Virus record (IMG/VR): IMGVR_UViG_3300010049_000008
Coordinates: 1-32,017 of that record
DNA length: 32,017 bases
Direction: 5' to 3' (one strand)
Origin: a virus
Each line of letters opens with the position of its first letter. Position 1 is the stretch's first letter. The notes under the pieces were generated by a model. It had not been told where the DNA came from, did no database searches, and saw only the letters and a list, made by a program, of their open reading frames with translations. Position numbers and translations under genes: made by a program. Positions 2,243 through 23,910 of the stretch are shown in pieces.

Positions 2243-2285
2243 TTTATATATCCGTTTGGTATATGTTAACATGGAGTTAAACAAC
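2243..2285 (+). promoter_or_regulatory. Promoter/operator/leader cassette P1: TTTATATA-N12-ATGTTAACAT-GGAGTTAAACAAC-ATG
   Basis: TATA-like octamer at 2243..2250, 10-bp palindrome at 2263..2272, GGAG, then ATG at 2286. The 49 nt at 2243..2291 are identical to 31310..31358. Confidence 0.6.
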
Positions 2286-2654
2286 ATGACCGTACTAATG
2301 AACTATAAAAAAATTGAACAATCTCATCTTAACCAAATAATAAAAAACATGGAACAACTCGGATACACAGGTAAAGACTACCACACAGCCAAACAACCTT
2401 TCCCCCAAGACAAAAAACTCAGCGGAATACAAAAAGAAAGCTTCAGCTACTCAGTTAATGGCCGTGGAGAATTAATTGACGAAACCGTAAGCCAAATGAC
2501 AATACACTCAGCCGCACAAGGCAAAGTATTAATTTATAATAAAGAATGCTTCGAAATAATAAGCCGCAACGGAAAAGGCATAGAAGCCCAAAGAATAGTA
2601 GAACTCTATCCAAAACGATTTACATGCAAGGTAGTTTTTCGCTACCTCTACTAA
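2286..2654 (+). CDS. Hypothetical protein, 122 aa (MTVLMNYKKIEQSHLNQ...)
   Basis: 3' part of track ORF 2064..2654. Start set at the ATG after the conserved GGAGTTAAACAAC leader. The upstream part of that ORF is antisense to gene 1953..2213 and crosses the promoter. Confidence 0.65.
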   Translation: MTVLMNYKKIEQSHLNQIIKNMEQLGYTGKDYHTAKQPFPQDKKLSGIQKESFSYSVNGRGELIDETVSQMTIHSAAQGKVLIYNKECFEIISRNGKGIEAQRIVELYPKRFTCKVVFRYLY

Positions 2655-2706
2655 CTTTTTCATCTCATCAATTAATCGCGGTATTGATAGAGGAGGTGAA
2701 AAGTGT

Positions 2707-2922
2707 ATGGGTAATGCATTAAGCGGGTTCTTCGGAATGATTATATGTGCTGTCCTCGGCATAGCTTCTCTTATTTTCGGCATATGGAACATTATTCAGG
2801 GAGTTATTGCTTGGAGTAGTATTTCTATTTGGCAGGTAGTCTATGCCGTCGGCGGGATTTTAGGCTTTATAATCTTTCTGGTGTTAGGCTTAGTTTGTTT
2901 AGCCATAGCAAACTCTAACTAA
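2707..2922 (+). CDS. 71-aa polytopic membrane protein (holin-like candidate)
   Basis: Strong GGAGGTGA 7 nt upstream. Almost entirely hydrophobic, with 2-3 predicted TM segments. Lies immediately upstream of the peptidase gene. Confidence 0.65.
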   Translation: MGNALSGFFGMIICAVLGIASLIFGIWNIIQGVIAWSSISIWQVVYAVGGILGFIIFLVLGLVCLAIANSN

Positions 2923-2959
2923 TCCCCAACTTTTTCTTTATCTTTTTTTAATACGAACA

Positions 2960-3002
2960 TTTAAATACTCATAAGCCTATGTAAACATAGGGAAGGAACA
3001 AC
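2960..3002 (+). promoter_or_regulatory. Promoter cassette P6: TTTAAATAC-N7-CCTATGTAAACATAGG-GAAGGAACAAC-ATG
   Basis: TATA-like box at 2960..2968, palindrome at 2976..2991 (7-nt arms), and leader ATAGGGAAGGA shared with the promoters at 24996..25038 and 19763..19809. Confidence 0.5.
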
Positions 3003-3653
3003 ATGAAAAAACAAACCTATGAATACCTAATAGCGGCATTATTAATAACCGCAATAATTTTAGGCATAACAGCTTTTATAATACTTTATCCGTGGGGACA
3101 AGAAACCACACAAGCAAACTGCAACATCACACCCACGGTAAATGTCACAGATGCAGAGTTAGCCGTATATCAACAAGTCAGCCAAGAAACCCGCATGAAC
3201 CACAAAACAAACCCCGCCTATTTCATGCAAAGCAGTCACCCAAAAATAATCGCGCTATGCAAACAATTAAACCAGCAGGGCGTAGACCAAAACCTAACCC
3301 CGGAAGAATTCGCACAATACCTCCTCAACTACGTATACACCGCCATCCAATATGCAGAAGACAAAGACACAACCCCCTACAACGACTACTACAATTTTCC
3401 CATAGAAACCTTAGCCCTCGGCTATGGCGACTGCGAAGACACCGCAATGCTCTACATGACCCTTTTAGATTACTTCAATTATGACTATTGTGCTTTCATA
3501 ACCAACACCCACTATTTTGTGGGTATAGCTGGAAACTTTAGCGGCAACCAAATAAACGGATACTACTATGCAGACACAACAACATACAACTATATTATCG
3601 GTAATCCGGTGGTACAAATAGAGGGAGAAAGAGTATGGCAATACTACCCTTAG
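3003..3653 (+). CDS. Signal-anchored transglutaminase-like (papain-fold) cysteine peptidase; candidate lysin
   Basis: N-terminal TM segment (YLIAALLITAIILGITAFIILY), then LALGYGDCEDTAMLYMTLL (the G-x-C-x-D core motif of transglutaminase-like enzymes), a later HYFVGI (His) and YYADTT (Asp). Confidence 0.65.
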   Translation: MKKQTYEYLIAALLITAIILGITAFIILYPWGQETTQANCNITPTVNVTDAELAVYQQVSQETRMNHKTNPAYFMQSSHPKIIALCKQLNQQGVDQNLTPEEFAQYLLNYVYTAIQYAEDKDTTPYNDYYNFPIETLALGYGDCEDTAMLYMTLLDYFNYDYCAFITNTHYFVGIAGNFSGNQINGYYYADTTTYNYIIGNPVVQIEGERVWQYYP

Positions 3654-3820: not shown

Positions 3821-6800
3821 TTAAGAGTTAGCTAACTTAGATATTAGTTTTTCGAGTGCCTCAACTCTTCGAGTCAATATTTGAATCGTGTCTTTCTCCT
3901 TATCCACTCGCCCCCAATATTGTAATAATTCGCCGTCATCACTATACATAGCTAAGTCACGCTCAATTTCAGTCATGCGCACATCATTTTCAAAGACCAA
4001 GTCACCGGGGGTAATGGTTACGGCACGCACAAGGCTAAATCTGTTTCCGTTCTGGCCTATAGTGCCGCTGTTATCATTTTTCGGAACAATAGAACCCGTT
4101 ATGGCAATGTTCCCGTAAGAACTACCATTATTATAATTCAACAACACATCATAATCACCAAGGCCGCCGGAAGATAACGAGGTGCCGTTAGCTTTCAGCC
4201 ACATCGTACCCTGACCGCTCGCATACACAGAAGCATTACCCGTATCAGTAGAATAGCCGGATGCAAACCCATAGTTGCCAAAGGCTGTTATTCCGTTGCC
4301 TGTGAAAGCTCCTAATACGCCCGAGTTAGCGCCTACGCCGCCTGCATTCATAGTCCAGTAGTAGAGGGGATTGTATCCGGGGAAATACCAGAGATAAGAG
4401 GGTGCAGTGTAATTTTGGCCTATCGCCGCTGTGAAATTAATAACGGTATTACTGCTGTCAAAACCTATGGTTCCTTGCTGATTTCCGCTCCCGTCCACAA
4501 AACGCAGTGATTGGCCAAATATTGAGATGCCGTTACTTGCTATATTGGCGAATGGGCTTACTAAGCCGTTTGCGCCTATGCTCATAGTTCCCGCGCCGAA
4601 AGTGCCTTTTCCAGTAGAAATATCAATGTAGAATTGTCTGACTTGGGCGCTGTCAAAGCCTGCGATGCCGCCGCTGTCGATAACTATTTCGTTGCCGCCG
4701 CCCCCGGGAGGCATAATAAACATTCCGTTTCTATTCATTGTAATTGACCCATTTGCAAAATAAGCATTACCATTAGATGCATCTATGTAAAATGAAGGTT
4801 GACCGCTTGAATTATAACCGCTTAAACCATTGCCATCTAATTTCAAAAATGGTGTTACATATCCATTTCCTATGTTGCCGTTTGAGAAGTCGAGGCGGCC
4901 GTTAGCATCGACGCCGTAAATGCTGAGTTGCCCGGCGTGTATTTGGCCTGCCATGAGTGCAAGGTTTAGGGTGCCGCATAATGTCCATACGTTTAAGCCT
5001 GTGATGGGGTCAGGTTCAGCGAAGTAATACGCTTGGGTGTCTGTGGCATAAAACATAGCGCCCTGTGAGACTGTGTCAGGTGCAGGTTTTTCAGCATCTA
5101 ACCCAAACAACAACACACCAAACCCCTGCATACTACCTATCAAATCTTCCAACGGAATATTTTTCAGGGTCTCAAAAGTGATACCACCGCGAACTTGGAT
5201 TCCGTTTACTTGTGTTGACCCGTTGCCTACCATCTGCCCGGTAATGTCTTGCAGTAACCGCATTTGCTGAGGTATGGCCACATCAAGTTCCACAGTTACC
5301 ATTGATGGGGTTTTAGTAATGCGTTTAATTTGAAAGCCGTCTGTATCAGATATGAAATCTAAGTCAGGACGATTAACAACAATAAACTGCCCCGCCCGCA
5401 TCATATACGTCTGATGTAACAAAGCATTAAGAGAGTTCCCGTTTGCGGAGGGATTGCTTAGACGTGTCCAAAGAAATTTGGCCATAGTATTTAGAGTATC
5501 TATGTCTGCGGCGTTAGGATTTTGATAAACTTTTACGGCCCCTGTTTTTACTGCTGGATATTGACCCATGATTAAGGTCTGTTCTTCGTCGGTTCCGCTT
5601 CCCCAAACTTGTACCGTCCCGATAACTTTGGATTCGTCTTTCGTTGTGTGTGACCCTGACTGCCAAAGTGGAGACTCATATAATGTTGAGCTACGGTAGC
5701 CTATGTTTATTTGGCCGTTTGCAGGCCAATAATCTAAACCAAGAACCGCCGCTAACTTTTGCACCGCCGTCAATGCATTTTCTTCGTTGAACGCGATTGA
5801 TACGGGTGTAGTAGGACATTGACCCGCGGATATATTGAGCGCTTGAGCCGCTATATGCTGCAGAATAAGGTTAGCGGGGGTTTGATCGAATGCTCTTGTT
5901 ATTGTGTTAACTGCTTTGTAGAGGTAATTTAGGACAGGGTCGAATAAACCACAAGTAATACGCGTACTATTAATATCACGTGATAACAACACACCCTGAA
6001 ATACTATAACGTCATTATATGTTAATTGAAAACTTTGACCCTGAACCGATTGCACAAACGCTAAAGCCGCCGGAGTATTAACTGTTGCAATTGTAGCTGA
6101 TAAGTTCCCGCCCGCTTCGCCCATTTCATCAAGGATTTCAATCCAATCAAATTGAAACGGAGGAGCTACATAAGCGGAACCATTCCAATAATTAACTCGT
6201 GGTTTTCCAGTGGAAGTTAACGGGGGAGTAATACGTGGACGCCAAACAGCATATAATGTTACGGGCGCAGTGCCCATAGCGAAGCTTGGAGGAGTAACCG
6301 TGTTATCAATATTCACTTTGAAGGTTGATAATGAGGCTAACGGATTGAAGTCCCAGCCGTCTAAACCATATTCCAGTATAGCCAAGTTTCCCGTATTACC
6401 TATAACGCTGACCGTTGCAAATTGGAAATATTCGTTAGGGTCTACTGGTACAGTACCCGTATAAGTTGTGCCAGATGGGGGATTAGCCGCATAAGTTACT
6501 CCAAATGATTCTTGCCAAACCGCATTAAGTGTGATATTAGCCGCTCCAATTATGAATGATGAAGGAGCTACTGTGATGCCGTCGGTTTGAATTCTGAATG
6601 AGGGGCTGTTAAGTTCTCCGGGTAAATCCCACCCAATAACCTTGTAACCCGTAGTATTGAGGTTGTTTGGGTTTGCTTGCACGGTTACGCTATCAGTTGA
6701 CCTGTACAGATTATTATCTACTGGTACTGACCCGGTTAGGGTGGTGCCTGCAGGGGGATTAGGCGCATAAGTTACGGTGTAGAGTTGTTGCCATACTGCG

Positions 6801-8452
6801 TATAGTGTAGTATTCGCGGCGGGGCTGGTGAACGTTGACGGGGTTACGGTTGAGCCGGACACCGCAAAATCAGGGGTGACCGCTGACGCAGAAAAAGCCC
6901 AGCCGAGATAGAGAAAGGGAACCGCTTGCAGATTGCCCGTATTCGCTAATACTGTTACGGGGTCGCCTGCATAGTAAGTGTTGCTATCCGTGGGTACGGT
7001 TCCGCTTGTGCTGGTTGCAGTACTGGGAAAGTTAGCGTTATATGTTACTGTTCGAGGTGTTGTGTCATGATACCAGACTGCATATAATTGCACATTGTTA
7101 GCGGGCATACTCATAGTCGGAGGTGTTGTGCCTGACCCAGATAAAGTAAATGTGGGAGTTGTTGCAGATGGATTTGTATCCCACCCCAACATTTGATAAG
7201 GCGGCGCGGTTAGACTTCCGGTGTTGCCTTGAATTGTGACCGATTCACCCGCTATATACACATTAGCATCAGTTGGCACATTTCCTCCTGTGCTGGTTGC
7301 GTCTGAAGGAAAATTAGCATTATAACCGATAGTAAATAACTGTTGCCATACTGCGTATAAAGTAACGTTAGCATTACCCATTGTAAAACTTGATGGAGTT
7401 ACAACGGTTCCGTTACTGCTAAAGGCAAATGTTGCTGTGGTGGCGCTTGGATTTGTATCCCAACCTAACAAGCGGTAGCCCATGCGGGCAAGATTTCCCG
7501 TATTCGCCGCAACTGGAACCGCCCATCCCGGCTCATATAAATTATTGTCAACGGGAACGGTTCCCGTTAATCCGGGGCCGATGGGTGCATTAGCATTATA
7601 TGTTACGGTATAGGTAGGAGTGACTTGCCATATCATGTATAAGGTGGTTGTAGTGGGGTTGGCTACGGTTGGAGCAATAAAGCTCGGAGGAGTAACCGTA
7701 TCATTAGGGCCAAAAACATAAGTTGGCACGGAAGCATTAGCCGTTGTTGCCCACCCTAACGGGGTATGATGAGGAATAGCTAAGTTCCCACTATTGGGCG
7801 CAATATACACAGTATCTCCTGCGAAATATTGGTTTGAGTCTTGGGGAACGGTGCCTGTGACGTTTCCAGCTTGACCGGCGGGGGCATTTACGTTATAAAC
7901 TACGGTTTGAGGGATTTTATATGCGTATATTCGAAACTTCCAGTTTATTGAAGATACTATCGGTGAGCCACTGTCCGTACCGCCGACCAGAGGCACGCCT
8001 GAACCACCAGCATTAAACGAGGTGAAACTGCGCCCATTATAATTCACATCATTTATCCCGTTGGAATTTCGTTCAATATCGAGAGTAGTGGCCAAGCTTG
8101 TTGAACGGGATAGCACCCAGACATATGTTTTAGCAGGGTCAAGATAAAAATCGGCTGATAAGGTGAAATCAACCCAGCCCATAGTAGTGTTTACTTGTAA
8201 CTGGGTAACGTTTGCGGGGCCAGCTAAATAACTGCCGATTGGCAGTCTTGTGGTGAGATTGGCTTCTTGGAGATAAAGTGAAATGTTGCCGTTGAATGCG
8301 GCGTTTCGTTTCATGGAAAGGGAAACTCTTCGAATATTCTTTCCATTACCCTGAAACGATGTGCCCAAAATATAATTTAATCCAAAATCCCAATTTTGGG
8401 TTGCTGTTCCTGTATCTGTACTGTTATCAATTATAACTTCATAAAAACTCAT
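3821..8452 (-). CDS. Tail tip / Tal-like baseplate hub fused to receptor-binding fibre, 1543 aa
   Basis: Follows TMP and Dit in the canonical order. It has an N-terminal beta-rich domain (aa 1-180), six ~90-aa tandem repeats (aa 182-738), a hub-like middle region, a Gly/Asn/Ser-rich fibre region and a C-terminal coiled coil (TRRVEALEKLISKL). Confidence 0.85.
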   Translation of the reverse strand: MSFYEVIIDNSTDTGTATQNWDFGLNYILGTSFQGNGKNIRRVSLSMKRNAAFNGNISLYLQEANLTTRLPIGSYLAGPANVTQLQVNTTMGWVDFTLSADFYLDPAKTYVWVLSRSTSLATTLDIERNSNGINDVNYNGRSFTSFNAGGSGVPLVGGTDSGSPIVSSINWKFRIYAYKIPQTVVYNVNAPAGQAGNVTGTVPQDSNQYFAGDTVYIAPNSGNLAIPHHTPLGWATTANASVPTYVFGPNDTVTPPSFIAPTVANPTTTTLYMIWQVTPTYTVTYNANAPIGPGLTGTVPVDNNLYEPGWAVPVAANTGNLARMGYRLLGWDTNPSATTATFAFSSNGTVVTPSSFTMGNANVTLYAVWQQLFTIGYNANFPSDATSTGGNVPTDANVYIAGESVTIQGNTGSLTAPPYQMLGWDTNPSATTPTFTLSGSGTTPPTMSMPANNVQLYAVWYHDTTPRTVTYNANFPSTATSTSGTVPTDSNTYYAGDPVTVLANTGNLQAVPFLYLGWAFSASAVTPDFAVSGSTVTPSTFTSPAANTTLYAVWQQLYTVTYAPNPPAGTTLTGSVPVDNNLYRSTDSVTVQANPNNLNTTGYKVIGWDLPGELNSPSFRIQTDGITVAPSSFIIGAANITLNAVWQESFGVTYAANPPSGTTYTGTVPVDPNEYFQFATVSVIGNTGNLAILEYGLDGWDFNPLASLSTFKVNIDNTVTPPSFAMGTAPVTLYAVWRPRITPPLTSTGKPRVNYWNGSAYVAPPFQFDWIEILDEMGEAGGNLSATIATVNTPAALAFVQSVQGQSFQLTYNDVIVFQGVLLSRDINSTRITCGLFDPVLNYLYKAVNTITRAFDQTPANLILQHIAAQALNISAGQCPTTPVSIAFNEENALTAVQKLAAVLGLDYWPANGQINIGYRSSTLYESPLWQSGSHTTKDESKVIGTVQVWGSGTDEEQTLIMGQYPAVKTGAVKVYQNPNAADIDTLNTMAKFLWTRLSNPSANGNSLNALLHQTYMMRAGQFIVVNRPDLDFISDTDGFQIKRITKTPSMVTVELDVAIPQQMRLLQDITGQMVGNGSTQVNGIQVRGGITFETLKNIPLEDLIGSMQGFGVLLFGLDAEKPAPDTVSQGAMFYATDTQAYYFAEPDPITGLNVWTLCGTLNLALMAGQIHAGQLSIYGVDANGRLDFSNGNIGNGYVTPFLKLDGNGLSGYNSSGQPSFYIDASNGNAYFANGSITMNRNGMFIMPPGGGGNEIVIDSGGIAGFDSAQVRQFYIDISTGKGTFGAGTMSIGANGLVSPFANIASNGISIFGQSLRFVDGSGNQQGTIGFDSSNTVINFTAAIGQNYTAPSYLWYFPGYNPLYYWTMNAGGVGANSGVLGAFTGNGITAFGNYGFASGYSTDTGNASVYASGQGTMWLKANGTSLSSGGLGDYDVLLNYNNGSSYGNIAITGSIVPKNDNSGTIGQNGNRFSLVRAVTITPGDLVFENDVRMTEIERDLAMYSDDGELLQYWGRVDKEKDTIQILTRRVEALEKLISKLANS
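6239..7909 (-). repeat. Six tandem ~90-aa coding repeats resembling Listeria-Bacteroides (Flg_new / InlB B-repeat) domains
   Basis: Each unit reads like TVTYNAN..TGTVP.D.N.Y..G..VTV..NTGNL...GY..LGW.T.......F.......TP..F......V.LYAVWQ. Units end at LYMIW, LYAVW (x4) and LNAVW. An identical 19-mer TGTTGCCATACTGCGTATA occurs at 6786..6804 and 7341..7359. Confidence 0.7.
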
Positions 8453-8865
8453 TAGATTAATACCACCGTAACATTAGTACCCGTCGCTTCACGGAATATC
8501 ATGTTATACCTATATATTACTTCTTTCCCCTCTTGTTTGCGGGTATAATCAAAGCTGAAAAGCCATCCTGCAGAAGTGAAAAACTGATTATCCGGGTCAC
8601 TCAACTGCACAACCTTACGATTCCAAGATTCCAGTTGTGTGAGAAAATTAGTTATCAACTGCTGATTCGTTGAGCCCGTAACCCATAAGGCCCCTGACAG
8701 CGTTACAGTTTTCGATTTCGGAAACCGAGAAATCAAAGCCGTCCCCTGTCCCTCAATGGTGAATTCTTCCAATTGGAACGGCAGAGAGACCTTTACGTTT
8801 GTGGGGGCGAACGGTAAGGTGATGGTGTTTGTTCCGTCTCCAATTTGCCAAGTATTAACACTCAT
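8452..8865 (-). CDS. Distal tail protein (Dit-like), 137 aa
   Basis: Position only: it lies between TMP and Tal, with TAATG overlap to the Tal start at 8452. Confidence 0.5.
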   Translation of the reverse strand: MSVNTWQIGDGTNTITLPFAPTNVKVSLPFQLEEFTIEGQGTALISRFPKSKTVTLSGALWVTGSTNQQLITNFLTQLESWNRKVVQLSDPDNQFFTSAGWLFSFDYTRKQEGKEVIYRYNMIFREATGTNVTVVLI

Positions 8866-8866
8866 T

Positions 8867-10477
8867 CTAATAGCGCACTCCTAATCTGTTCTGTCCTTCA
8901 GTTCCAAGCGCATTGCTTATGGCGCGGACTAAGGCTTGTTCTTCTCCCCGAGTCACCGCGTCCTCTATGGCTGAGACTATTTCGTCTAAGCTTTGCGAAC
9001 CGGAAACACTCTCTATACTTATGGTGGGGGTGCTGGTTACGTGTATTGTTACGTCTCCAGTACCGCCTCCTGTTGGGCCAGAGGGAACTATTGAACCGTC
9101 AGTACCTCCTACGGGAACCACTGCCTCGGGGCCAGCTTCCCCAATCACCCCCTGCGGAACCCCTGCTGAATCTACAAGCGTGTAGGGTTCGGTAACTATG
9201 CCGCCTGTAGCCATCTTAGTGCCCCCAGACGACCCGCCCCCGCCAAATAAGCCTCCAAAGAATCCTCCTAAAGCATTTCCAATACCGCTTAAAAAATCCC
9301 CAACGGGCTTAAATATTGTATCATAAACCTTCTTTAGGGCGTCAGCTACAGGTTTAATAAGATTATCCCAGACCCATTTAAACGCATTCCCTAAGTTTTC
9401 CCAAGCCTTTTGTAAAACATTCTTTATGAAGTTGCCAATTGGAACCAGCACATTCTCCCAAAAAGCAGTGAGTAATTTCATAACGTTCTCAATAATGCCT
9501 GTAAAGATTGTTTTTAGAACTTTGCCGAAGGCGTCTATAGCATTTTTCACAGTCTCATTATTTTCATAAAGATAATACAGGGCCAAAGCTAAAGCTACTA
9601 TAGCCGCTATAATTATTACGATTGGATTGGCCGCTAAGAAACTCATAGCGCCTCCTAAAGCTGTTGTGGCCCCTGTTTGCACGGTGGTTGCTGTGGTGGC
9701 TAATCCCTGAGCCGCTGTTTGTGCGCCAGTTGCGGCAGTGTTAGCAACTGTAGTGCCAGTTAGCGCGGCTTTTACAGCAGAAAGGGCAGATTGAGCACCC
9801 GTAAGCAATCCAGTGGCACCCTGCAGAGAAGTAACCATAGTAATCATGCTGGGAAGAACGGTTAAGGCCATTTGGACATAACCCTTCTCAAGGTTTTTCT
9901 GGGCCTGCTCTTCATTCGCTAAGGCGAGGCGGCTTTGCTCACTTTTAATGGAAAGGTTTTCATCTGCTAACGCCTGTTTATTTTTCGCATCTTCTAATTT
10001 GAGTGTGGCCTCTTCCCACTGAGGAGAATCCCTTCCAAACTCCTGCATAGCCTGATATACGGCGTCCTCGGCAGTTTGAACTTTCCAATTCGCATCTTCT
10101 AAGGCTTGGCTGGCTTTCTCTTCCGCAAACTTGGCTTTAGTTACCGCTTGAGATGACTTATCAACAGCTAACTGTTTAGTAGATAAAGAATCATAAGCAT
10201 TATAAAGCGACATAGCAGAAGTAGCTACATTGTTGGCGGCTAAAGCAGATTTGGTAAATGAAACATCGGTAGCGTTAGCGCCTTTACTTATTTCAGCGGA
10301 TGCAGAAGAAGTTGCGGAAGCGGCATCATTCATCCCCGTAGTAACAGCGGCACCAGCCGAAGCACCCGCCTCAGACATAGTATTCATAGAAGAGGTAACT
10401 TGATTACTTGCGTTATTGATAGCTTCGGAAGCTTCATCTATTACAGAAATATGTATAGTTACCTCTTCAACGCTCAC
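8867..10477 (-). CDS. Tape measure protein, 536 aa
   Basis: GTG start with GAGGT 7 nt upstream. Ala/Ser/Gln-rich helical N half, hydrophobic segment PIVIIIAAIVALALALYYLY, Gly-rich linker, and the C-terminal GVIGEAGPEAVVP motif typical of tape measures. Sits downstream of the chaperone frameshift. Confidence 0.85.
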   Translation of the reverse strand: MSVEEVTIHISVIDEASEAINNASNQVTSSMNTMSEAGASAGAAVTTGMNDAASATSSASAEISKGANATDVSFTKSALAANNVATSAMSLYNAYDSLSTKQLAVDKSSQAVTKAKFAEEKASQALEDANWKVQTAEDAVYQAMQEFGRDSPQWEEATLKLEDAKNKQALADENLSIKSEQSRLALANEEQAQKNLEKGYVQMALTVLPSMITMVTSLQGATGLLTGAQSALSAVKAALTGTTVANTAATGAQTAAQGLATTATTVQTGATTALGGAMSFLAANPIVIIIAAIVALALALYYLYENNETVKNAIDAFGKVLKTIFTGIIENVMKLLTAFWENVLVPIGNFIKNVLQKAWENLGNAFKWVWDNLIKPVADALKKVYDTIFKPVGDFLSGIGNALGGFFGGLFGGGGSSGGTKMATGGIVTEPYTLVDSAGVPQGVIGEAGPEAVVPVGGTDGSIVPSGPTGGGTGDVTIHVTSTPTISIESVSGSQSLDEIVSAIEDAVTRGEEQALVRAISNALGTEGQNRLGVRY

Positions 10478-11042: not shown

Positions 11043-11456
11043 TTAGGGTGCAACCGCCCGGATGGGTGGTGCAATAATCACAGCTTCCAAACTAAAGGTC
11101 ACAATGGCCTCTTGTTCTACGCTCTGTGTGGCAGATGAAACAATTACGGAGTAGGTGTGCATTGGTTTTCCTGTTACGGGGCCAAGCGGATAATCGATGA
11201 TTTCTATAGCCGCGCCCGCCTCCAAAAGATTCGCATAAGTATCATCAACATAGAGATGCTCCATTGATATGTTTCCTGTGAGGTTCCCCATAACAGAAAT
11301 ACCCCATTGAGCCGCGCTTGTTTGGCCCAAAACATATTCCTGAACCACGTTTCCCTCTTCAGATACTTCATAACTTGTGCAATAACCAGCTATAGCGCCG
11401 TCTATCACTAACTGTGCTAATCTGCCAATTTGAGGCGTATTAGTAGGTGTACTCAT
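11043..11456 (-). CDS. Major tail (tube) protein, 137 aa
   Basis: Position immediately upstream of chaperone/TMP, with its own TTTTTTAACTTC promoter like the capsid and scaffold genes. No sheath gene is present, so a non-contractile tail is expected. Confidence 0.55.
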   Translation of the reverse strand: MSTPTNTPQIGRLAQLVIDGAIAGYCTSYEVSEEGNVVQEYVLGQTSAAQWGISVMGNLTGNISMEHLYVDDTYANLLEAGAAIEIIDYPLGPVTGKPMHTYSVIVSSATQSVEQEAIVTFSLEAVIIAPPIRAVAP

Positions 11457-12050: not shown

Positions 12051-12488
12051 CTACGCAATCACCGTGTGAAAAACCGTTTCCACTTTCAGCCGCCACTTCT
12101 CCGGAGCTTCAATCTTTTCGGTTGAGGGCTTCACAAAGAAAACTCTGGGGGAAGTGCTTAGGGTACGGCCTATAGTGTAGAGTTGCGCTTCCAAGTTTTC
12201 ACGGTCAGCACTAATAGCATCGATGTCGCCGCCGTAAGCATCTACACTAAATATGCAGTCGATGGTTACTTGTTCCTTTTCATATATCACAGATTTCACA
12301 GGGTGTGTTATAGTGCCTGTTTTAGGTGCATTGTAGGTGCTTATCACAATTTTAGCGCTTAGCTGACTCCAGTTATCCATAGCTTGATTGCGCGTTGAGT
12401 AATATTGGATTGGGGGTAAATCTGTTAGGTTTGACTCTATTAGCGATATAAGGTATTGTGCGTTATTTAGGGTAGGGGTATTGCTCAC
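12051..12488 (-). CDS. Neck / head-closure-type protein, 145 aa (by position)
   Basis: GTG start with AGGAGG 8 nt upstream. Lies between the adaptor and the gp10-like gene. No motif recognised. Confidence 0.45.
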   Translation of the reverse strand: MSNTPTLNNAQYLISLIESNLTDLPPIQYYSTRNQAMDNWSQLSAKIVISTYNAPKTGTITHPVKSVIYEKEQVTIDCIFSVDAYGGDIDAISADRENLEAQLYTIGRTLSTSPRVFFVKPSTEKIEAPEKWRLKVETVFHTVIA

Positions 12489-13687
12489 ACTTTTTGTCCT
12501 CCTATTCGGCCGCTGAAATCATGACCCGACGTCACCCGTAATAAACCAAGTTGTCTTAAGATTTGATTTGCCTGTGTGGTATAGTTAGCCCACTGTACGC
12601 CGTATTTCCCATCTTTGGGATACTGCACACGTAAATCTCCCAAACTGTAACTCTGCAAGACACCTCCGCTCCAAGCCGCTAACACTTTAAGCGCCGCTAA
12701 CATACTGCTAAGATGAGCAACATTAGTGGGAACAGTCGCATAGCCAAAAGTGTAGTCTACCTGAAATACTTTCATGCCGTTTACAAAGTTGCGGTAGAAT
12801 TGGATTTCACAGCGGGCCGGATAAACTTCATAATTCGCATCTGTGGGGCCGCCGTCTGCTGTTCTTCCCTCGATTGTGGGCCACCATTGGTTAGACTGCC
12901 AAAACGTCACATTATTAACTTGTACTAATGGAAAATTGTTTAGCAGAATTTGTCCCGGCGGCATCTCTAACAAGCGGTCATAAGTTTCAACTGTATCATG
13001 TAATCTGAAGTCATGTCCGCACCAGCCGTCAATAAACGCGTCCGCTTCCTCAATCATTGTTTGCGCTTGGGCTAAGGTGGGTTTGGTGGTGTCGGTGAAA
13101 GTGAAGCCTAACAAAGCTTGTAAATCTGCTATACTGCTGTAACTGTTTCCTATAGGGGTGGGAGGGTCGGTGTGCAGGGTGAGCAATTGAAAAGGCAGGA
13201 CTTCAGAAATCACTATAGCAGAATTCCAAGCCGCAGAATATTGCAAAAACATTTGACCGTTGCGCGATGCATCAGGAGAGGTACCTGTGGTGATAAACAT
13301 GTTTCCTGAACCGGGCGCAGTAGCATTCACAATAGCCACAAAATAGATAGAGCCGGAAACGGTTTGTACGGGGTTAGCAAAATCAAACTCTATCCATCCT
13401 GCCACGTTATTTATGGATTGCATCGCTATATTTACACTTGAACCCACAACAGTTTTGTTTTGGTCGAGTATTAGCATCTGCATTTGGCCTGTCTGATTAT
13501 TATTTTGGCGGCTGATAATCACCCGACCTTTATTAATTATGTCTCCGGTACCCATAAATTGTTGCGCTACGCCCGCATTATTTAGTGCGGTGCTGAGGTA
13601 TGCGGCCCCTAAGTTTTGAGTTGATGTGGGAGGATAGAGTATGATTTCATCTATGACGTCATATACTATTTCTATGGGTTCGGTCAT
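12485..13687 (-). CDS. Head-tail adaptor (gp6/gp15-like connector) with an extra N-terminal beta-rich domain, 400 aa
   Basis: The C-terminal half begins SSIADLQALLGFTFTDTTKPTLAQAQTMIEEADAFIDGWCGHDF, the usual opening of head-tail connector proteins. The N-terminal ~175 aa resembles the Tal N-terminal domain. Confidence 0.6.
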   Translation of the reverse strand: MTEPIEIVYDVIDEIILYPPTSTQNLGAAYLSTALNNAGVAQQFMGTGDIINKGRVIISRQNNNQTGQMQMLILDQNKTVVGSSVNIAMQSINNVAGWIEFDFANPVQTVSGSIYFVAIVNATAPGSGNMFITTGTSPDASRNGQMFLQYSAAWNSAIVISEVLPFQLLTLHTDPPTPIGNSYSSIADLQALLGFTFTDTTKPTLAQAQTMIEEADAFIDGWCGHDFRLHDTVETYDRLLEMPPGQILLNNFPLVQVNNVTFWQSNQWWPTIEGRTADGGPTDANYEVYPARCEIQFYRNFVNGMKVFQVDYTFGYATVPTNVAHLSSMLAALKVLAAWSGGVLQSYSLGDLRVQYPKDGKYGVQWANYTTQANQILRQLGLLRVTSGHDFSGRIGGQKV

Positions 13688-14270: not shown

Positions 14271-15317
14271 TTAACCAGTCTGTAGAAGTGTGACAGCTTC
14301 AGCAACGATTTTAGCGGGTGCACCGATAACGCTGGTGGTAACGTAAAAGCCTACATCTACTCCCCATCGTGTCATTTCACTGGATACGTCGCGGATTTGG
14401 GCCCATCCAATAGCCTCGTCAGCTTGCAATACTGCGCCAAGATTTGCGCCAGAGGTTGCAGGTGCGGTTGGAGCATATACAGCATCACTGAATATTTTCA
14501 TACCGAAGATTTCAGAGATTGCGCCAGACTTCACATAGCTATCCAATGCACTGGTAAATTGCACAGAGGTGATGTTGTTCATGATAAACGGATAGAATCC
14601 GAATGCACCTGTAGCATCGACTGGGAAGGTTTGGAATACATCAGCACGAAAACGTTGTCTTTCAACTTGGCCTCTTGCGGCAAGTAGATTGGCAAAGGTA
14701 TAGTTTGCGCCTGCGGCTGTGGTTTGAATGTTGGTGTTAGCGTTTGGTGTTGCGGTTGTGGTGTCGTTTACTGCGGCATAGATGTTAGCGTTTATTGCGG
14801 CATTCAACACGTTGCCGTGCAGGACACCGACAGTCTGAGCCAAGTTATAAGCCAATTGACGTTGCAGTTTGTCTTCGATGAAGGTGCTGACTGGTAGAGT
14901 GACGGTTTTTGCTTGAATTTCATATAGTGAGAGGTTTAGGGGTGCTACACCATTTGGGGGCATGGTGCCTTGTCCGTTATAGGGTTGAACTGCAGTGCCG
15001 CCTAAGCTGAGTGGTAGCCAGCCTGCTGGGGGTTTCGCGTATTGCCAGCCATAATTCACACCAGTGCCCTCGGGCATGAGTTCTGTTCGGCAGTAGGCGC
15101 GTGCGTCGATGAGTGTGGCGAGTTGGACTGCGGCGCGTGCGGCAACCATGTATGGGAATGCGGCACCGGGAGTTTGAGTGTTCATTTGTTTAATTGGTGC
15201 GATCATGGGGTTTGCGGCGTCTGTTACAAGCATGGAACCATATTTTTCGGCGAGTGTGTCAAAGGATTGCTCTATTTTTTTAGACCATGGATATTGTTTA
15301 ATGTTTCTTTGACTCAT
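14271..15317 (-). CDS. Major capsid protein (HK97-fold expected), 348 aa
   Basis: Immediately downstream of the protease-scaffold gene, with size typical of a delta-domain-less MCP and its own TTTTTTAACTTC promoter. The call rests on position and composition. Confidence 0.75.
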   Translation of the reverse strand: MSQRNIKQYPWSKKIEQSFDTLAEKYGSMLVTDAANPMIAPIKQMNTQTPGAAFPYMVAARAAVQLATLIDARAYCRTELMPEGTGVNYGWQYAKPPAGWLPLSLGGTAVQPYNGQGTMPPNGVAPLNLSLYEIQAKTVTLPVSTFIEDKLQRQLAYNLAQTVGVLHGNVLNAAINANIYAAVNDTTTATPNANTNIQTTAAGANYTFANLLAARGQVERQRFRADVFQTFPVDATGAFGFYPFIMNNITSVQFTSALDSYVKSGAISEIFGMKIFSDAVYAPTAPATSGANLGAVLQADEAIGWAQIRDVSSEMTRWGVDVGFYVTTSVIGAPAKIVAEAVTLLQTG

Positions 15318-15396: not shown

Positions 15397-16698
15397 TTAG
15401 GGGTTGGCACCCATTAGGGCCGCCATAACTGCACCAATATCCCCATTATACTGGATGAGGAGTTCACGTGCATTCTGTTCTACACCGCGTGCCCGCTTAA
15501 CATTGGGGCCTGACCCGGTTTCTGCTGTTGGGCTGGTTTGTTTAGCATCGGTTCGGGTGGGGACTAAGTCAGGGTTCGCGTTTGGTATGGTGCCCGCATC
15601 TGCGCCCGCTTCAACTTGTTTAGCTTGCTCGTATCCACCGGTGTTGGGGCCGCCCATAGTTGGAGGACAAGTAACATTAGCGGGAGTCCAAGTACCCTCC
15701 TGATATTTACCACGGAATTTACGTTCAGCCGCCATAAGAATCTCTTGGGGTGTACGGTTCTGTTTTAGCGACTCTTCTTGTTCTTCTTCCTCTTCACCTT
15801 CGCCCTCTTCCCCCTCTTCTTCTTCGGTTTCAACTTCTACAGTAGTGATGTTGACTTCGACAGATTCTTTAGGTTTTTTCTTCTCTTTCTTTTGCTTCTC
15901 CTCTTCCTCTTCTTCCTCGTCTTTGTCGTCCGCTTCTTCTTCCTCCTCCTCTTCATCTTTAGCTTCTTCTTTGGATTTCTTTTTCTTAGCGGCCTCTTTA
16001 GATTTCTTGGTTTTGGTTTCTTCTTCTTCTTCTTCTTCTTCTTCTTCTTCTTCTTCTTCTTTGGCGGCTTGTTTTAGGGGTTTGCATGTTGGGCATCCGC
16101 ATTCTGCGACGTGTACGGGTTGGAGTTTAGCCATCATAGCTTCCAATATTTTTAGTTTCGCGTCAAAAGTTTCATCTATACGTTTCATGGCTGATTCATA
16201 TATGCGAGTTGATTTTTCGCTGTCTCTGAGGCTTTGGGTGATACGTGATATTTCAGTCATGGCCGCCTGTTCAATTGCCGGGAAAGGTGTGATGCTTAAT
16301 TCTTCGGGGTTGAATTCGATAATCATTTCTTTCCCGTCTGCGGTTAGTACCATTGGGCCGTTACCGCCGACAGAAACACCCATCAACATTTTAGGCTTAC
16401 CGTTCTCGCCGCTCATTTTTTCGAAAAGGGATTCGTGAAGCAAGCCGCGGCCAGACAACCAAAGACCATCAACAGTTTGACCCAACGCATTTTTTCCTGT
16501 ACCATATTCTGCGGATTCCACAACACCCGCAACATCACGAGACCCAAAGCCGTGGTCTAACATGAGGGGTTTTCCGGGGTACTTTGGTGCGGCGTCCATT
16601 AATGTTTTTTCGTTCCAGATATAGCCGTTGCGCGACTCGGTTGGGTAAGCCGCGAAAGCTTTCCAATTGAAATATGCATTACCTTGTTTATCTGCCAT
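15397..16698 (-). CDS. Prohead protease (HK97 / S78-like) fused to a coiled-coil and highly acidic scaffold domain, 433 aa
   Basis: PLMLDHGFGSRDVAGVV, LMGVSVGG and EELSITPFPAIEQA match the landmarks of HK97-family prohead proteases. A coiled coil and a ~100-aa Glu/Lys tract follow. Confidence 0.8.
   Translation of the reverse strand: MADKQGNAYFNWKAFAAYPTESRNGYIWNEKTLMDAAPKYPGKPLMLDHGFGSRDVAGVVESAEYGTGKNALGQTVDGLWLSGRGLLHESLFEKMSGENGKPKMLMGVSVGGNGPMVLTADGKEMIIEFNPEELSITPFPAIEQAAMTEISRITQSLRDSEKSTRIYESAMKRIDETFDAKLKILEAMMAKLQPVHVAECGCPTCKPLKQAAKEEEEEEEEEEEEEETKTKKSKEAAKKKKSKEEAKDEEEEEEEADDKDEEEEEEEKQKKEKKKPKESVEVNITTVEVETEEEEGEEGEGEEEEEQEESLKQNRTPQEILMAAERKFRGKYQEGTWTPANVTCPPTMGGPNTGGYEQAKQVEAGADAGTIPNANPDLVPTRTDAKQTSPTAETGSGPNVKRARGVEQNARELLIQYNGDIGAVMAALMGANP
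16018..16059 (-). repeat. Perfect (GAA)14 trinucleotide microsatellite inside the scaffold domain
   Basis: The plus strand reads ttc x14 without interruption and encodes a poly-Glu run. Further imperfect GAA/GAG/AAG runs extend down to about 15770. Confidence 0.9.
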
Positions 16699-20144: not shown

Positions 20145-20863
20145 GCCTCCATATCTTCCGGCTTAACATCTTTGGGCACCCGCAACAGCGGCCCCCGCTC
20201 AGGTGTTACCAATCCAGTGTCTTCGGGGCTGTTCTGCTTAGAGGGCGTGTTTCCTTTCGGGAAAGTTTTTCTTGTACCGTAGGGAGACTCCACATCAATC
20301 CTATTAAGTTTAACCCACTTCTTGAACATGTATTCTCCGTGAGCAATGGTTTCGCCGTTGAAAACTGCTTGTTTCTGAAACGCTTTCTGAATCCGCTTAA
20401 TATCATCACTATAAGTTTTACGCTGATGTATTTTATTTGAGAAAGAGTAATCACCGGGGTTTTTCTTAATCAAGTCTATTTCTGGAGTTTTTAGTGGGTC
20501 AGGAGGTGAGAGACTGCCCCAATCGAAGCTGTAGGGGTCAAGGTCTTCGGCAGGTTCCAATAATTTCGCTAAGCTGTCCGGGGTATATTCTCCCGCTTTC
20601 ACCACAAGCATGCAACGGTCGTGAGGATGTACCATTGGGAATATAAGTTCATCATCATGCTCAATCTTTTCGGGGAACTGCCCATTCACTTCCATCATCG
20701 ACATAATTGATGCGTTGTATTGTTCACAATCTTCACAAGTCTTTTCATCCGCTACAGCAACATACATCCACCAGCGGGAAGCCTGCACAATCCCCCGTAA
20801 CTGCAAGATTTTCAATTGGTCGCTGACTCGAAAAGCCATAAAGGGAGGGAGAACTGATGACAT
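20141..20863 (-). CDS. Minor head / head morphogenesis protein (Mu F / SPP1 gp7-like domain), 240 aa
   Basis: VADEKTCEDCEQYN ... FPMVHPHDRCML fits the D-x-x-T-C-x-x-C ... HP-x-x-R-C signature of the Mu F family. Immediately follows the portal with TAATG overlap. Confidence 0.7.
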   Translation of the reverse strand: MSSVLPPFMAFRVSDQLKILQLRGIVQASRWWMYVAVADEKTCEDCEQYNASIMSMMEVNGQFPEKIEHDDELIFPMVHPHDRCMLVVKAGEYTPDSLAKLLEPAEDLDPYSFDWGSLSPPDPLKTPEIDLIKKNPGDYSFSNKIHQRKTYSDDIKRIQKAFQKQAVFNGETIAHGEYMFKKWVKLNRIDVESPYGTRKTFPKGNTPSKQNSPEDTGLVTPERGPLLRVPKDVKPEDMEA

Positions 20864-22458
20864 TAGCTTACACGTGTTAAGATTGTTTTACCGTCCTTAA
20901 TTTCTGTTGCCCACGATTCAGCTTGAGTTCCCGCTACGTTTGAGGAGTCGCGTAAGGTGGGTTTGGTGTTTCCTTCGTACAGGGTGCCTTCGGCGGCGTC
21001 TTCGGGTAGCTGGAGTTGTTCTCTTACGGTTTCTGCATCAATTACCCCCGCCATAAACAATTCAAGCAGAGGCCTTGTGAGCGCGGTTAGGTCGGCGGTG
21101 ACTATGGGTTTGAATCGGAATTCTAAGCCGGGGCCAATCCACTGCTTAATTAACTGCTCGTTTATGAGGTCTTCTATGGCTTGCTGGTGAGCTTTCACGT
21201 TGTTTGTGAGAACTTCAAACTTTAGGCCGCCCCACTTAATTTCTCCCTGATTATTTCCTTGCGGGTCAAGAAGAGAACTGGGTACACCCAAACCAAGTAA
21301 TACACGTTCTTTCCAGATGTTTATTAGTTCGGCTATTCCGCGTATTTGACCCTCATTTTTATAAATCTGCTCAATGGTGGTGAATATATCAGTGTATATG
21401 TCGCTGGTTGGGGGAAGAGCAGTCATCTGGGCTTTCCATTTTTGGAACCCGTCCGCAGGCGCAAAGATTGTGTCTTCTACGCCTGATTGTTTCATGTTCC
21501 CGCCATACTTTAGCTGTAGCCTGACATCTGCTCTTTTCTGTACGATAGCTGGCAGATATTGAATCATGAGCAGGTAAGCTTTGAGCGTGTAATATACTTC
21601 TTTGAATGAACTGTAACCATATATGCCTCCAGCCATGTTGTTAAATTTCAATTGATAAATCTGCTCACGATGCAAATAAATATCAGTATACGCCGCAGAT
21701 AAACCCGCCTCTATACTGGAGATGTTCTGTTCCCACGCACGCTGTATGTATGCGTCTGTTTCTATTTCTGCTAATTTCTTGTTGAACATAGATGGATTTT
21801 TTATTACTCGCATGGTTCGTGGGTCAAGTTTTTTGAGACCGTAGAACTCGGTGGCGGGCACCCATTTTATAAGGGTGCGGGCGGCGGCTAACTGAGCCGC
21901 ACCGACAGCTGTGGGAGCGGATTGGTTATTAGTCCACGTGGCCCGGCTGTTATCATTACTTTCGCAGTATCCATTTCCATAAACTATTGCGTCATGCGTC
22001 ATTTCTTTAAATTTGGCTTCTAACTTTTTGTTGTTCCATAATTCCATAAACTTTTCTTTAAGTTTAGTGTCTTTTTTGTCTGCAACAATTAAGTTAAAGC
22101 CATTTTTCCAAACTAAGTTAACGTAAAGTTTAACCATGAATGAGGCTTCAGGACAATTAGCCCGGGTCTGGATATAGTCCCAATAGAACGCCCAGTCATC
22201 CGGCCACCCGAACTGAGGATTATACACACCAAGCGGAAGTAAAGTTTGAGCTTGAGCTATGTCCGCTTGTGTAATTCTTCTACTCGCCAAGGTTGCCGCT
22301 GAAATTCCGGGAGCAAAATAAGCGTCTTTCCCATCAATATTCACACCGGTACCCATCACTCTGTAGGTGTTTTCTTCGCTGAAAGCCGGCAGTTTATTAT
22401 CCCCATAGGCTTGGGCATTGGGAGTTTGTTTGGCTATTACTTTGAAAGGATTGCGCAT
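20863..22458 (-). CDS. Portal protein, 531 aa
   Basis: Size and canonical position, 4 nt downstream of TerL and upstream of the Mu F-like gene. Confidence 0.8.
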   Translation of the reverse strand: MRNPFKVIAKQTPNAQAYGDNKLPAFSEENTYRVMGTGVNIDGKDAYFAPGISAATLASRRITQADIAQAQTLLPLGVYNPQFGWPDDWAFYWDYIQTRANCPEASFMVKLYVNLVWKNGFNLIVADKKDTKLKEKFMELWNNKKLEAKFKEMTHDAIVYGNGYCESNDNSRATWTNNQSAPTAVGAAQLAAARTLIKWVPATEFYGLKKLDPRTMRVIKNPSMFNKKLAEIETDAYIQRAWEQNISSIEAGLSAAYTDIYLHREQIYQLKFNNMAGGIYGYSSFKEVYYTLKAYLLMIQYLPAIVQKRADVRLQLKYGGNMKQSGVEDTIFAPADGFQKWKAQMTALPPTSDIYTDIFTTIEQIYKNEGQIRGIAELINIWKERVLLGLGVPSSLLDPQGNNQGEIKWGGLKFEVLTNNVKAHQQAIEDLINEQLIKQWIGPGLEFRFKPIVTADLTALTRPLLELFMAGVIDAETVREQLQLPEDAAEGTLYEGNTKPTLRDSSNVAGTQAESWATEIKDGKTILTRVS

Positions 22459-22461
22459 ATT

Positions 22462-23910
22462 TTATGACCCGCTTACATAACTATTGGGTGCTGTTTTGTT
22501 TATAAGCTTATTTTCAGCTCCCCCCACATTAGAGCTTGGTGCACGCACACCCCTAAACACATTCTCACAGAGTAACACTACGGCATCAACGGCGTCGTCG
22601 TGAGCATCTTTGGGAAAACTTACCCATTGCTGGGTAAATAATGAGTCTCTAAGTGCTGGATTGATAAGCACTCTCATGGCTTCGAAGTGAGCACTTGCCA
22701 CCGTAAAACGTATCTCCTTATTTGTGTGGGTGTGTACGGGGACGATGGGGTAAGTGGTGCCGTTGGGGTGGGTTCTGAAGTTGGCATGTTTTATCAATAT
22801 TTTCTGCATGAAATTGGCCTCAACATACATTTTTAATGGATTATATTTTTCAAATTCGTTTGGCAGATGAGCTGATAATATTTCAAAATAATCCTTATGT
22901 TCTGCCCATACATTATAGAGATATAACCTATTCTGAAACGCCGAATAACCCCCCGTGGCTATTGCAAAGTAGTCATTTTCTCCTCCTGCTGGGTCAATTG
23001 CCATATATGGTTTTATGTCGGTGGGTGTGTAGGGGCTTAAGTTTGGCTGGGTTGTATCCCAATAATGAAGCCACTCCGCTTTTAGCATATCACCCGTGGC
23101 GGGCAACGGCTGGTTTATATATTGGTTAAAGAATTTGATTGTGCCCAAATCATTTTTACGTTCTAAAAGGGCTTCGATGGGCCAGACTTCCGGCCACAAC
23201 ACTTGAGCGGGTTCACGGCCTGCAAAGTAGGCCTCGCTGTTTTTGATGGCGCTTAAACTTTGAGACGGCCATCCTAAACCATTCTCCGATTTGGGGTTTA
23301 TGAGATTACTGTATAGGTCGTTATTGTGCCATCGGGAACCTATCACAATTATTGCGCCTGTGCTAAACATTGTGGGGAGCAACGCCTCACGAAACCAATC
23401 AAACGCCTTATTTCTTTGGAGTTCGGTGCCGACATTCTCTACATCTATTATGTCGTCACAAATGATGAGGTCAAATCCCTGTCCCGTCAGATTTCCCGAA
23501 CCGTATAGGCCCGAGGCGCTTAGGGTGGGAAATTTACTTATCTGTTTTCGTTCTAAGGTGAAAGCGTTATCGTTCCATTGTTGTGGGTTATCTGGTTTTA
23601 GATTACCAAATACTTCTATGTGACGTTTATCAAATTCAATCCTGCGCCGAACAGCTTTCAAAGTATTAGTAGCCAGAGTGTCAGTTTTTGAGGTTATTAA
23701 TGCGTGTAATTCTGGGAACCGGGAGATTATCCAGCTTAAACAATTAATTGCAAAAACTTCTGATTTAGCATGTTTTCGAGGGCCAAGAAAAACATATTTC
23801 TTGAGCGCCTGCTTATGGTCGGGGAGGGGGCTTATGTGGTTCTGGTTGTTTTGGGGAGAAAATAGGTTATACCAATAGTTTTGATAATCAGCTATGTTTT
23901 GGTAACCCAT
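22462..23910 (-). CDS. terL: Terminase large subunit, 482 aa
   Basis: Walker-A-like FLGPRKHAKS, Walker B FDLIICDD, and C-terminal nuclease acidic motifs MAIDPAGG and HDDAVDAVV. Confidence 0.9.
   Translation of the reverse strand: MGYQNIADYQNYWYNLFSPQNNQNHISPLPDHKQALKKYVFLGPRKHAKSEVFAINCLSWIISRFPELHALITSKTDTLATNTLKAVRRRIEFDKRHIEVFGNLKPDNPQQWNDNAFTLERKQISKFPTLSASGLYGSGNLTGQGFDLIICDDIIDVENVGTELQRNKAFDWFREALLPTMFSTGAIIVIGSRWHNNDLYSNLINPKSENGLGWPSQSLSAIKNSEAYFAGREPAQVLWPEVWPIEALLERKNDLGTIKFFNQYINQPLPATGDMLKAEWLHYWDTTQPNLSPYTPTDIKPYMAIDPAGGENDYFAIATGGYSAFQNRLYLYNVWAEHKDYFEILSAHLPNEFEKYNPLKMYVEANFMQKILIKHANFRTHPNGTTYPIVPVHTHTNKEIRFTVASAHFEAMRVLINPALRDSLFTQQWVSFPKDAHDDAVDAVVLLCENVFRGVRAPSSNVGGAENKLINKTAPNSYVSGS

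Follow-up and report, generated by a model that had tools for sequence, protein, structure and literature searches.

The 32,017-nucleotide stretch of viral DNA analyzed here (the window; positions 1 to 32,017 of the IMG/VR record IMGVR_UViG_3300010049_000008) carries on its minus strand a gene for an unusual 1543-residue tail protein (3821..8452, stop codon 3821-3823). The product has, in order, a beta-sandwich, six Flg_new-type units, a linker, a gp27/gp44-like hub, a fiber and a conserved fiber-end module. Our overall explanation, which we hold to be probable, is that this is a single baseplate hub protein with fused N-terminal adhesin arms and a C-terminal fiber, belonging to a siphovirus-like virus most likely of Bathyarchaeia. 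A first-pass annotation of the window had already described a beta-rich domain, six Flg_new-type repeats, a hub and a fiber in this order, and our open reading frame (ORF), unit and hub searches agree with it. Its label of Tal (tail-associated lysin) did not hold, as searches with Pfam, NCBIfam and PHROG revealed no lysin, peptidase, lysozyme or glycosidase domain in any part of the protein; judged by its predicted domains, the proper label for the product is baseplate hub protein.

The baseplate hub domain and its position

The hub domain (aa 751-1088; 5189..6202, minus strand), which is of the gp27 / Mu gp44 / VgrG-N type, was recognized by AlphaFold2 (AF2) modeling, Foldseek and hidden Markov model (HMM) searches. 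The HMM envelope covers aa 746-1088, and the AF2 model, built from a 30-sequence alignment (predicted local distance difference test (pLDDT) 86, predicted template modeling score (pTM) 0.77), is structured from the first strand at aa 751 to approximately aa 1075. A Foldseek search of the PDB with this model gave 54 matches at E<=1e-3, and the best 50 listed were all to hub, VgrG or extracellular contractile injection system (eCIS) spike-base proteins with TM scores of ~0.5-0.63; these included the Neisseria Mu-like tail protein 3d37 (1.5e-15), HFTV1 9h4p_BD (4e-14), Mu gp44 (1wru, 6e-13) and T4 gp27 (1k28_D, 2.6e-10), together with eCIS, PVC and AFP spike bases, VgrG proteins and T5 tip proteins. 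The gp27-like region of the first-pass annotation is borne out by the confidence of this model and by these E-values; its extent required correction, the domain having been placed at aa ~740-1000 with ~560 residues after it, whereas we find it at aa ~751-1088, followed by ~455 residues.

By sequence, the hub scored 21.6 bits (E 1.7e-4) against the Pfam YQBQ-like family PF24032, below the gathering score of 27; the consensus of the 30-member alignment exceeded this cut-off with 33.3 bits, and 8 of the 30 family members matched. Members of the hub family also gave weak Pfam matches to Prophage_tail and Sipho_Gp37. With aa 738-1543 as the query, exhaustive HMMER searching identified 142 representative proteins, most of which matched residues ~16-350 of the query (aa 753-1087). 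Neither the C-terminal 806 residues nor the hub alignment had any match in word-indexed homology searches, only noise resulted when the alignment was compared with PDB sequence profiles, and there were no hub homologs in 50,697 GenBank phage records.

The window ends in an exact direct terminal repeat of 123 bp (1-123 and 31895-32017) and the ENA contig ERZ27264051 holds the window sequence in circularly permuted form at 100% identity, which together indicate a complete genome of ~31.9 kb that, from these ends, is either circular or terminally redundant. The hub HMM, run over the complete genome, matched ORF 3821..8452 only, and thus found no second hub gene elsewhere. As the first-pass annotation had it, the hub gene directly follows a gene in the Dit position: this encodes a 137-residue protein (8452..8865, minus strand) that lies between the hub and a 536-residue tape measure protein (TMP; 8867..10477, minus strand), the latter recognized by PHROG tape measure families with E-values down to 4e-19. 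The 137-residue protein had no Pfam or PDB sequence match; its homologs (~130-163 residues, E 1e-12 to 3e-22) are located between the TMP and hub in 17 related loci, 12 from metagenomes and five from genomes, four of the five genome contigs being labelled Bathyarchaeia or Bathyarchaeota. No sheath or wedge genes are present in the head-tail module of the complete genome, and 3' of the hub gene there is one 55-residue ORF only, followed by genes on the opposite strand; these two features suggest a siphovirus-like particle with a minimal tail tip.

Among 86 representatives with a hub-domain start, 75 begin with the hub (73 with a Met at the hub) and 11, the 1543-residue protein included (~13%), have more than 60 residues in front of it, which agrees with the first-pass description of such an extension as unusual. 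The hubs of relatives in metagenomes and in metagenome-assembled genomes (MAGs) of Bathyarchaeia are ~950 residues long, start at residue 1 and extend C-terminally, and the 1543-residue protein is among the few members of the family with long extensions at both ends of the hub.

Six Flg_new-type repeat units

Six tandem units, which had been placed at 6239..7909, were found at 6242..7906 (aa 183-737). Delimited by a start motif T-V-T-Y-N-A-N-x-P and an end motif L-Y-A-V-W, and by alignment and a unit profile, they are, all on the minus strand, unit 1 (aa 183-275; 7628..7906), unit 2 (aa 282-369; 7346..7609), unit 3 (aa 374-460; 7073..7333), unit 4 (aa 468-554; 6791..7051), unit 5 (aa 559-646; 6515..6778) and unit 6 (aa 651-737; 6242..6502). 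The units are 87-93 residues long, share 17 invariant columns, and are 34-48% identical to unit 1. A homology search identified 233 proteins that matched the repeat region only (~36% of the query), with E-values down to 2e-252; among the best 120 of these 233, all those with precomputed Pfam domains have PF09479 and most also have PF18998, and many of the repeat-region homologs are named InlB B-repeat-containing or TIGR02543 proteins. No precomputed Pfam domains are recorded for P0036, a relative discussed below. With a profile built from the six units, 13 units were recovered in the homolog P0004 and 19 in P0003, both of which have Pfam Flg_new matches on record. When single units were compared with Pfam, Flg_new matched two of the six (best E 2.2e-5) and Flg_new_2 was seen in four, and the best single Flg_new stretch on the whole protein was aa 281-368, corresponding to unit 2.

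Because of the strong homology to proteins bearing PF09479 and PF18998, we place the repeat units in the Flg_new superfamily, as what appear to be divergent, elongated members. With the Flg_new/InlB B-repeat proteins (PF09479, PF18998; TIGR02543) they share the signature V.Y..N....G.vP.d.n.Y..g..v.v..N.g.L...gY.f.GW........f......t......LYA.W, but they are longer than the 65-position model, and whereas the cellular proteins are cell-wall-anchored or secreted, the units here would be part of a virion hub protein. The InlB B-repeat has a beta-grasp-like fold. Comparable Flg_new repeats were present in only three of the 50,697 GenBank phage records, and the finding extends Flg_new/InlB-B repeats, known as spacers of cell-surface adhesins, to virion proteins.

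The 19-mer TGTTGCCATACTGCGTATA occurs at both 6786..6804 and 7341..7359, as the first-pass annotation reported; it is the longest exact repeat of the region and encodes the LYAVWQQ with which units 4 and 2, respectively, end. The further proposal that unit number could change by recombination at this 19-mer is weakened by the fact that it encodes a conserved unit end in units that are only 41-56% identical as DNA. This low identity and the result of Tandem Repeats Finder, which detected no DNA tandem array in the repeat region, point instead to an old, diverged array. Neither IMG/VR nor the JGI metagenomes held close relatives in which to compare copy number, and for this reason no copy-number variants were found; the alignment of relatives (A2) was too divergent for a pattern scan.

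The N-terminal beta-sandwich domain

In front of the repeats, aa 1-182 (7907..8452, minus strand) form a domain, referred to here as the X-domain, that resembles carbohydrate-binding modules (CBMs) and fiber-head domains. Its AF2 model is an all-beta sandwich (pLDDT 73.5, pTM 0.72). The best Foldseek matches to this model were a phi812 baseplate protein (1e-5) and the central fiber of Mycobacteriophage Douge, phage baseplate and fiber domains matching with E-values from 1e-5 to 3e-3, and the fold matches in BFVD were to phage tail, minor-tail and collagen-like fiber proteins. A phmmer search with aa 1-182 gave no match, and Pfam, PHROGs and NCBIfam yielded no family for the domain; a likeness to DUF4082 was considered and dropped, as the Pfam DUF4082 match reached only E 0.12 on the family consensus.

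The X-domain has a second copy in the window, at about aa 7-180 of the 400-residue head-tail adaptor (12485..13687, minus strand), which was identified as such by a match of its aa 172-380 to phrog_442 (E 1e-14). BLASTP between the adaptor copy and the N-domain of the hub protein gave an E-value of 0.005. A profile seeded on the N-terminus of P0004 gained the N-domain of the adaptor at iteration 2 (3.3e-7) and that of the hub protein at iteration 4 (6.8e-10, 32.6 bits, before its own inclusion), these E-values being relative to the 261 sequences searched. The first-pass statement that the single hub protein probably carries all host-recognition functions was therefore too strong, and the adaptor copy could provide another site of adhesion, at the neck. 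A further instance was seen at L015, one of the related loci, where the Dit-position protein (2251-3174, plus strand) has 308 residues and consists of an X-domain (aa 19-177) fused ahead of a ~130-residue Dit-like part; this could be regarded as an "evolved Dit" made from the same cassette.

The C-terminal fiber and its end module

The C-terminal part of the protein, aa 1089-1543 (3824..5188, minus strand), has the Gly/Asn/Ser-rich composition of a fiber (15% Gly). The exhaustive HMMER search gave scattered homologs to segments of this region, and no Pfam, PHROG or NCBIfam family matched it; nor was there any similarity between it and the product (288 residues) of the gene that follows the P0036 hub. 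Near its end, profile comparison delimited a conserved module (aa 1439-1517; 3902..4138, minus strand) with the pattern ...DN.G.IG....RF.LVRAVTITPGDLVFEN..R.TE..., which is common to ~50 of the 142 HMMER representatives, is usually located at the extreme C-terminus, and has invariant P, G, G-D, F, N and E residues. The profile of this module matched residues 260-307 of the T5 L-shaped fiber pb1 (4uw8, E 1e-3), a fiber of cyanophage P-SCSP1u and the phi92 endosialidase, and there were weak PHROG matches to tail fibers and spikes.

In T5 pb1 (PDB 4uw7/4uw8; Peptidase_S74) the aligned stretch lies just before and across the cleavage site of the intramolecular chaperone. The pb1 cleavage motif TINTSDARLKND corresponds to TITPGDLVFEND here, so that the Ser and Lys of S-D-x-R-x-K are replaced by Gly and Glu (G-D-L-V-F-E), and only ~45 residues follow the motif, in contrast to the ~130-residue chaperone of T5 pb1 and other S74 proteins. 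As the Ser-Lys dyad is absent, the part after the motif is this short, and Pfam gave no S74 match, we rejected an S74 chaperone at the fiber end; the module may instead be a compact fiber cap or a self-processing element. The protein closes with a short amphipathic helix (aa 1518-1543, KEKDTIQILTRRVEALEKLISKLANS; 3824..3901, minus strand) of about three heptads with hydrophobic a/d positions, which we infer to be a putative trimer cap. The coiled-coil tail of the first-pass annotation is recognizable in this heptad helix, although it extends over only ~26 residues.

N-terminal extensions in the hub family and a possible adhesion cassette

The N-extensions of other hub proteins differ in content: two GH5 cellulases and Flg_new_2 in P0132, Flg_new_2 in P0137, a polysaccharide lyase in P0179, and Big_3_5 in P0189 and P0194, while P0036, from a termite-gut metagenome (JGI sample 3300009784), and P0123 carry an X-domain and Flg_new cassette before the hub, as the 1543-residue protein does. 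From this diversity of glycan and adhesion domains we conclude that adhesion modules and glycan-active ones recur at the hub N-terminus in this family.

The Flg_new proteins most closely related to the one studied here are P0003 to P0006. All four are giant, with genes immediately after the capsid gene in viral contigs, and P0003 stems from the same sample as the IMGVR_UViG_3300010049_000008 genome. At two of the related loci, L004 (9391-13839) and L005 (10001-16774), the giant proteins are 1482 and 2257 residues long, are encoded just after the capsid gene, and contain 13-19 Flg_new units with one or two X-domains. A ~110-residue C-terminal anchor domain of the giant proteins (…ELYAAGRYLQ..PEEKTHPY…) had no PHROG match and no similarity to the adaptor of the window; the idea that P0002-P0006 end in a head-tail adaptor domain was rejected after phmmer against the C-terminal half of the adaptor and PHROG searches with the C-terminal 130 residues gave nothing.

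The cassette occurs on the baseplate hub (this genome, P0036 and P0123), on a Dit-position connector (L015), on the head-tail adaptor (this genome), and on the giant protein encoded beside the capsid gene (P0002-P0006, up to 19 units). We tentatively speculate, and consider it somewhat less than an even chance, that this Bathyarchaeia virus lineage attaches a single portable cassette for adhesion, made up of a CBM-like beta-sandwich and in some cases a Flg_new stalk, to the N-terminus of whichever symmetric virion proteins are available. If so, the site of first contact, be it tail tip, neck or head, would be an evolvable trait in archaeal tailed viruses, and the hub N-terminus would be a general point for docking or fusing side fibers, shared with the archaeal virus HFTV1 (see below).

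Host

At 14 loci of JGI metagenomes and six of GTDB species genomes, homologs of the tube, the TMP, the 137-residue protein and the hub occur in this order; five of the six GTDB hub loci are in Bathyarchaeia/Bathyarchaeota MAGs, among them one on a 1.7-Mb and one on a 267-kb contig. Because homologous tail modules reside in Bathyarchaeia MAGs, the host of the ~31.9-kb virus is probably a member of the Bathyarchaeia, and a repeated promoter-like element containing TTTATATA lends support to an archaeal host. Bathyarchaeia, which are uncultured, occur abundantly in sediments, peat and termite guts.

The two long contigs, L021 (CAVRJR010000001.1, 1.7 Mb) and L023 (267 kb), have homologous tail modules (tube, TMP, Dit-like protein and a ~950-residue hub) inside Bathyarchaeota sequence. 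Such an internal location in large MAG contigs indicates integration, and both tail modules probably belong to integrated proviruses, from which attachment sites and host range could be defined.

Comparison with known tail proteins and a proposed mechanism

A close structural parallel is Haloferax tailed virus 1 (HFTV1; PDB 9h4p), in which separate side fibers dock at the N-terminus of each hub subunit, the C-terminal hub domains point downwards, and the hub and fibers are shed upon DNA ejection. The predicted hub fold of the 1543-residue protein, with its tube-like beta-barrel domains and helix-containing insertion domains, is common to the family of HFTV1 gp44, Mu gp44, the MuSo2 43-kDa protein and T4 gp27, although identity to the HFTV1, Mu and T4 hubs is ~12% and similarity is undetectable by sequence. 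Members of that family form a trimeric plug of the tail tube, and by analogy the 1543-residue protein is a putative trimer. HFTV1 is also a non-contractile archaeal virus, like the siphovirus-like particle proposed here, which is known from its genes alone. The two differ in that the HFTV1 side fiber is a separate protein, gp42, docked non-covalently, whereas here a 745-residue arm is fused to the hub and there is no separate fiber gene; by analogy with the docking of side fibers at the hub N-terminus in HFTV1, the N-terminal arms would be side fibers fused to the hub. For the structural biology of tails, this would mean that the hub N-terminus can bear a large fused arm where HFTV1 docks a separate fiber.

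With the Tal/central-fiber proteins of siphophages (SPP1 gp21, TP901-1 Tal, lambda gpJ and T5 pb3) the protein shares its gene position after the TMP and Dit, and a gp27-like hub followed by a C-terminal extension that forms the central fiber, which is what we propose for the extension here. The extensions of siphophage Tal proteins are C-terminal and their hub domain begins at residue 1; the larger extension of the 1543-residue protein is N-terminal, and we found no lysin domain. Decoration of a ring-forming or hub-forming tail-tip protein with CBM-like domains, which provide additional adhesion sites, is likewise the principle behind the "evolved" Dit and Tal proteins of phages infecting lactococci and lactobacilli. 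There, in phages of bacteria, the CBMs are inserted or appended C-terminally, while the cassette here is N-terminal, has a six-domain stalk and belongs to an archaeal virus lineage. To our knowledge, no fused N-terminal hub arm has been described in cultured phages.

We propose the following arrangement. Three copies of the hub domain would seal the distal end of the tail tube beneath a ring of the 137-residue protein, and the three C-terminal extensions would join below the hub as a central fiber with a tip module related to the end of the T5 pb1 fiber. The three N-terminal extensions of 745 residues would exit from the hub periphery as covalent side arms, in each of which six Flg_new-type domains form a beaded stalk tipped by the CBM-like beta-sandwich. 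The arms would make the first, reversible and probably glycan-directed contact with the host envelope, after which the central fiber and hub would commit the particle and cause the tape measure and DNA to be released. The beta-sandwich on the head-tail adaptor would provide a second adhesion site at the neck. We know of no experimental findings on how Bathyarchaeia viruses attach to their hosts, and the 1543-residue protein is a concrete, expressible candidate for this role: the arm (aa 1-745) and the fiber (aa 1089-1543) could be produced separately and used to probe environmental samples for host cells or glycans.

Several points weigh against this explanation. Pfam Flg_new (PF09479) scored only 16 bits on the whole protein and 19.2 bits on the unit consensus, which aligned end to end with model positions 2-65, both below the gathering score of 27, so the first-pass assignment of the repeats stands by homology to member proteins but not by direct Pfam score. 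The X-domain model is of moderate confidence, residues 133-167 having a pLDDT <50 and one loop being disordered, and the likeness of the domain to CBM6/35/36 is weak (Foldseek E ~0.02-0.1), with MAM and PHR domains in the same E-value range; of the lectin-like domain proposed in the first-pass annotation, the all-beta fold was thus recovered, while the lectin identity is a resemblance at the level of fold, and a lectin-like function for the modeled domain is a reasonable but unproven guess. The fiber region is without an assignable fold, and the 137-residue protein is a putative Dit by its position between the TMP and hub. The host assignment derives from MAG labels and the proviral context of homologs and not from a CRISPR spacer match to this genome, and trimerization, the path of the N-terminal arms and any ligand are suggested by analogy.

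Alternative explanations

The alternative that survives best, which we consider unlikely but worth keeping in mind, is that the arms are virion-borne but bind plant-fiber polysaccharide, gut mucus or biofilm matrix, host recognition being left to the C-terminal central fiber. Such binding would retain particles in the surroundings of their hosts, as Ig-like capsid domains do in the "adherence to mucus" model. Consistent with environmental binding, relatives come from termite gut (JGI 3300009784) and further JGI metagenomes, the N-extensions of other hubs bear the GH5 cellulases and polysaccharide lyase described above, and related viruses carry very long arrays of 13-19 units at a distance from the tail tip, on the product of the capsid-adjacent gene; in addition, Flg_new domains are reported in adhesin-like proteins of gut archaea. 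The location on the hub, where HFTV1 has its host-binding fibers, favors contact with the host instead, although the present data do not distinguish host from environmental glycans.

Considerably less probable is that the mature particle lacks the N-terminal 745 residues, through proteolysis or an internal start, and that these serve in assembly or are released or secreted. The arm is connected to the first hub strand by a Pro/Thr-rich linker, read from the sequence as RPRITPPLTSTGK (aa 738-750; 6203..6241, minus strand), which is a possible protease-accessible site, and the genome has a prohead protease/scaffold-like ORF. A search for an internal in-frame ATG, GTG or TTG at the boundary between arm and hub found none, the nearest candidates being at aa 726, inside unit 6 and lacking a clear ribosome-binding site, and at aa 777, inside the hub; a separate hub product is therefore improbable there. 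Moreover, the fused order is kept in the distant relatives P0036 and P0123, and ten other representative clusters keep varied N-extensions fused to the hub, as would be expected of displayed modules. That assembly or a frameshift artificially joined a separate adhesin gene to a normal hub gene to give the long ORF is extremely improbable: only the rarity of the arrangement speaks for it, whereas the 1543-residue product is identical in three independent assemblies (JGI, ENA ERZ27264051 and Logan SRR10512954, the latter two at 100% identity), the ORF is continuous across the arm/hub junction with no stop or change of frame, and P0036 and P0123 share the fusion.

Other features of the protein and genome

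The 1543-residue protein showed no enrichment of N-glycosylation sequons. The head-tail module, whose genes are on one strand, includes the large terminase (22462..23910), the portal (20863..22458), a protease/scaffold-like ORF, a major capsid candidate (14271..15317), the head-tail adaptor, a gp10-like protein, the tail tube (11043..11456), a chaperone-position ORF and then the TMP, the gp10-like protein being listed between the adaptor and the tube, and the chaperone-position ORF between the tube and the TMP. The protease/scaffold-like ORF (15397-16698, minus strand; 433 residues), which is in the prohead protease/scaffold position, contains long poly-Glu/Lys tracts, e.g., EEEEEEEEEEEEEE, which make up an acidic linker of extremely low complexity. 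An ORF of 216 residues (3003-3653, plus strand) that is convergent to the hub gene has a match to the transglutaminase core PF01841 (25.5 bits, E 1.7e-5) above the Pfam cut-off, and its product may be a cysteine-protease-like enzyme. The promoter-like element mentioned above is part of an exact 49-bp repeat, TTTATATATCCGTTTGGTATATGTTAACATGGAGTTAAACAACATGACC, at 2243-2291 and 31310-31358 (plus strand), with a third, diverged and inverted copy at ~25604-25652 (minus strand); it has the TATA-box-like TTTATATA at its start and GGAG...ATGACC at its end, and looks like an archaeal-type promoter, leader and start codon common to three genes.

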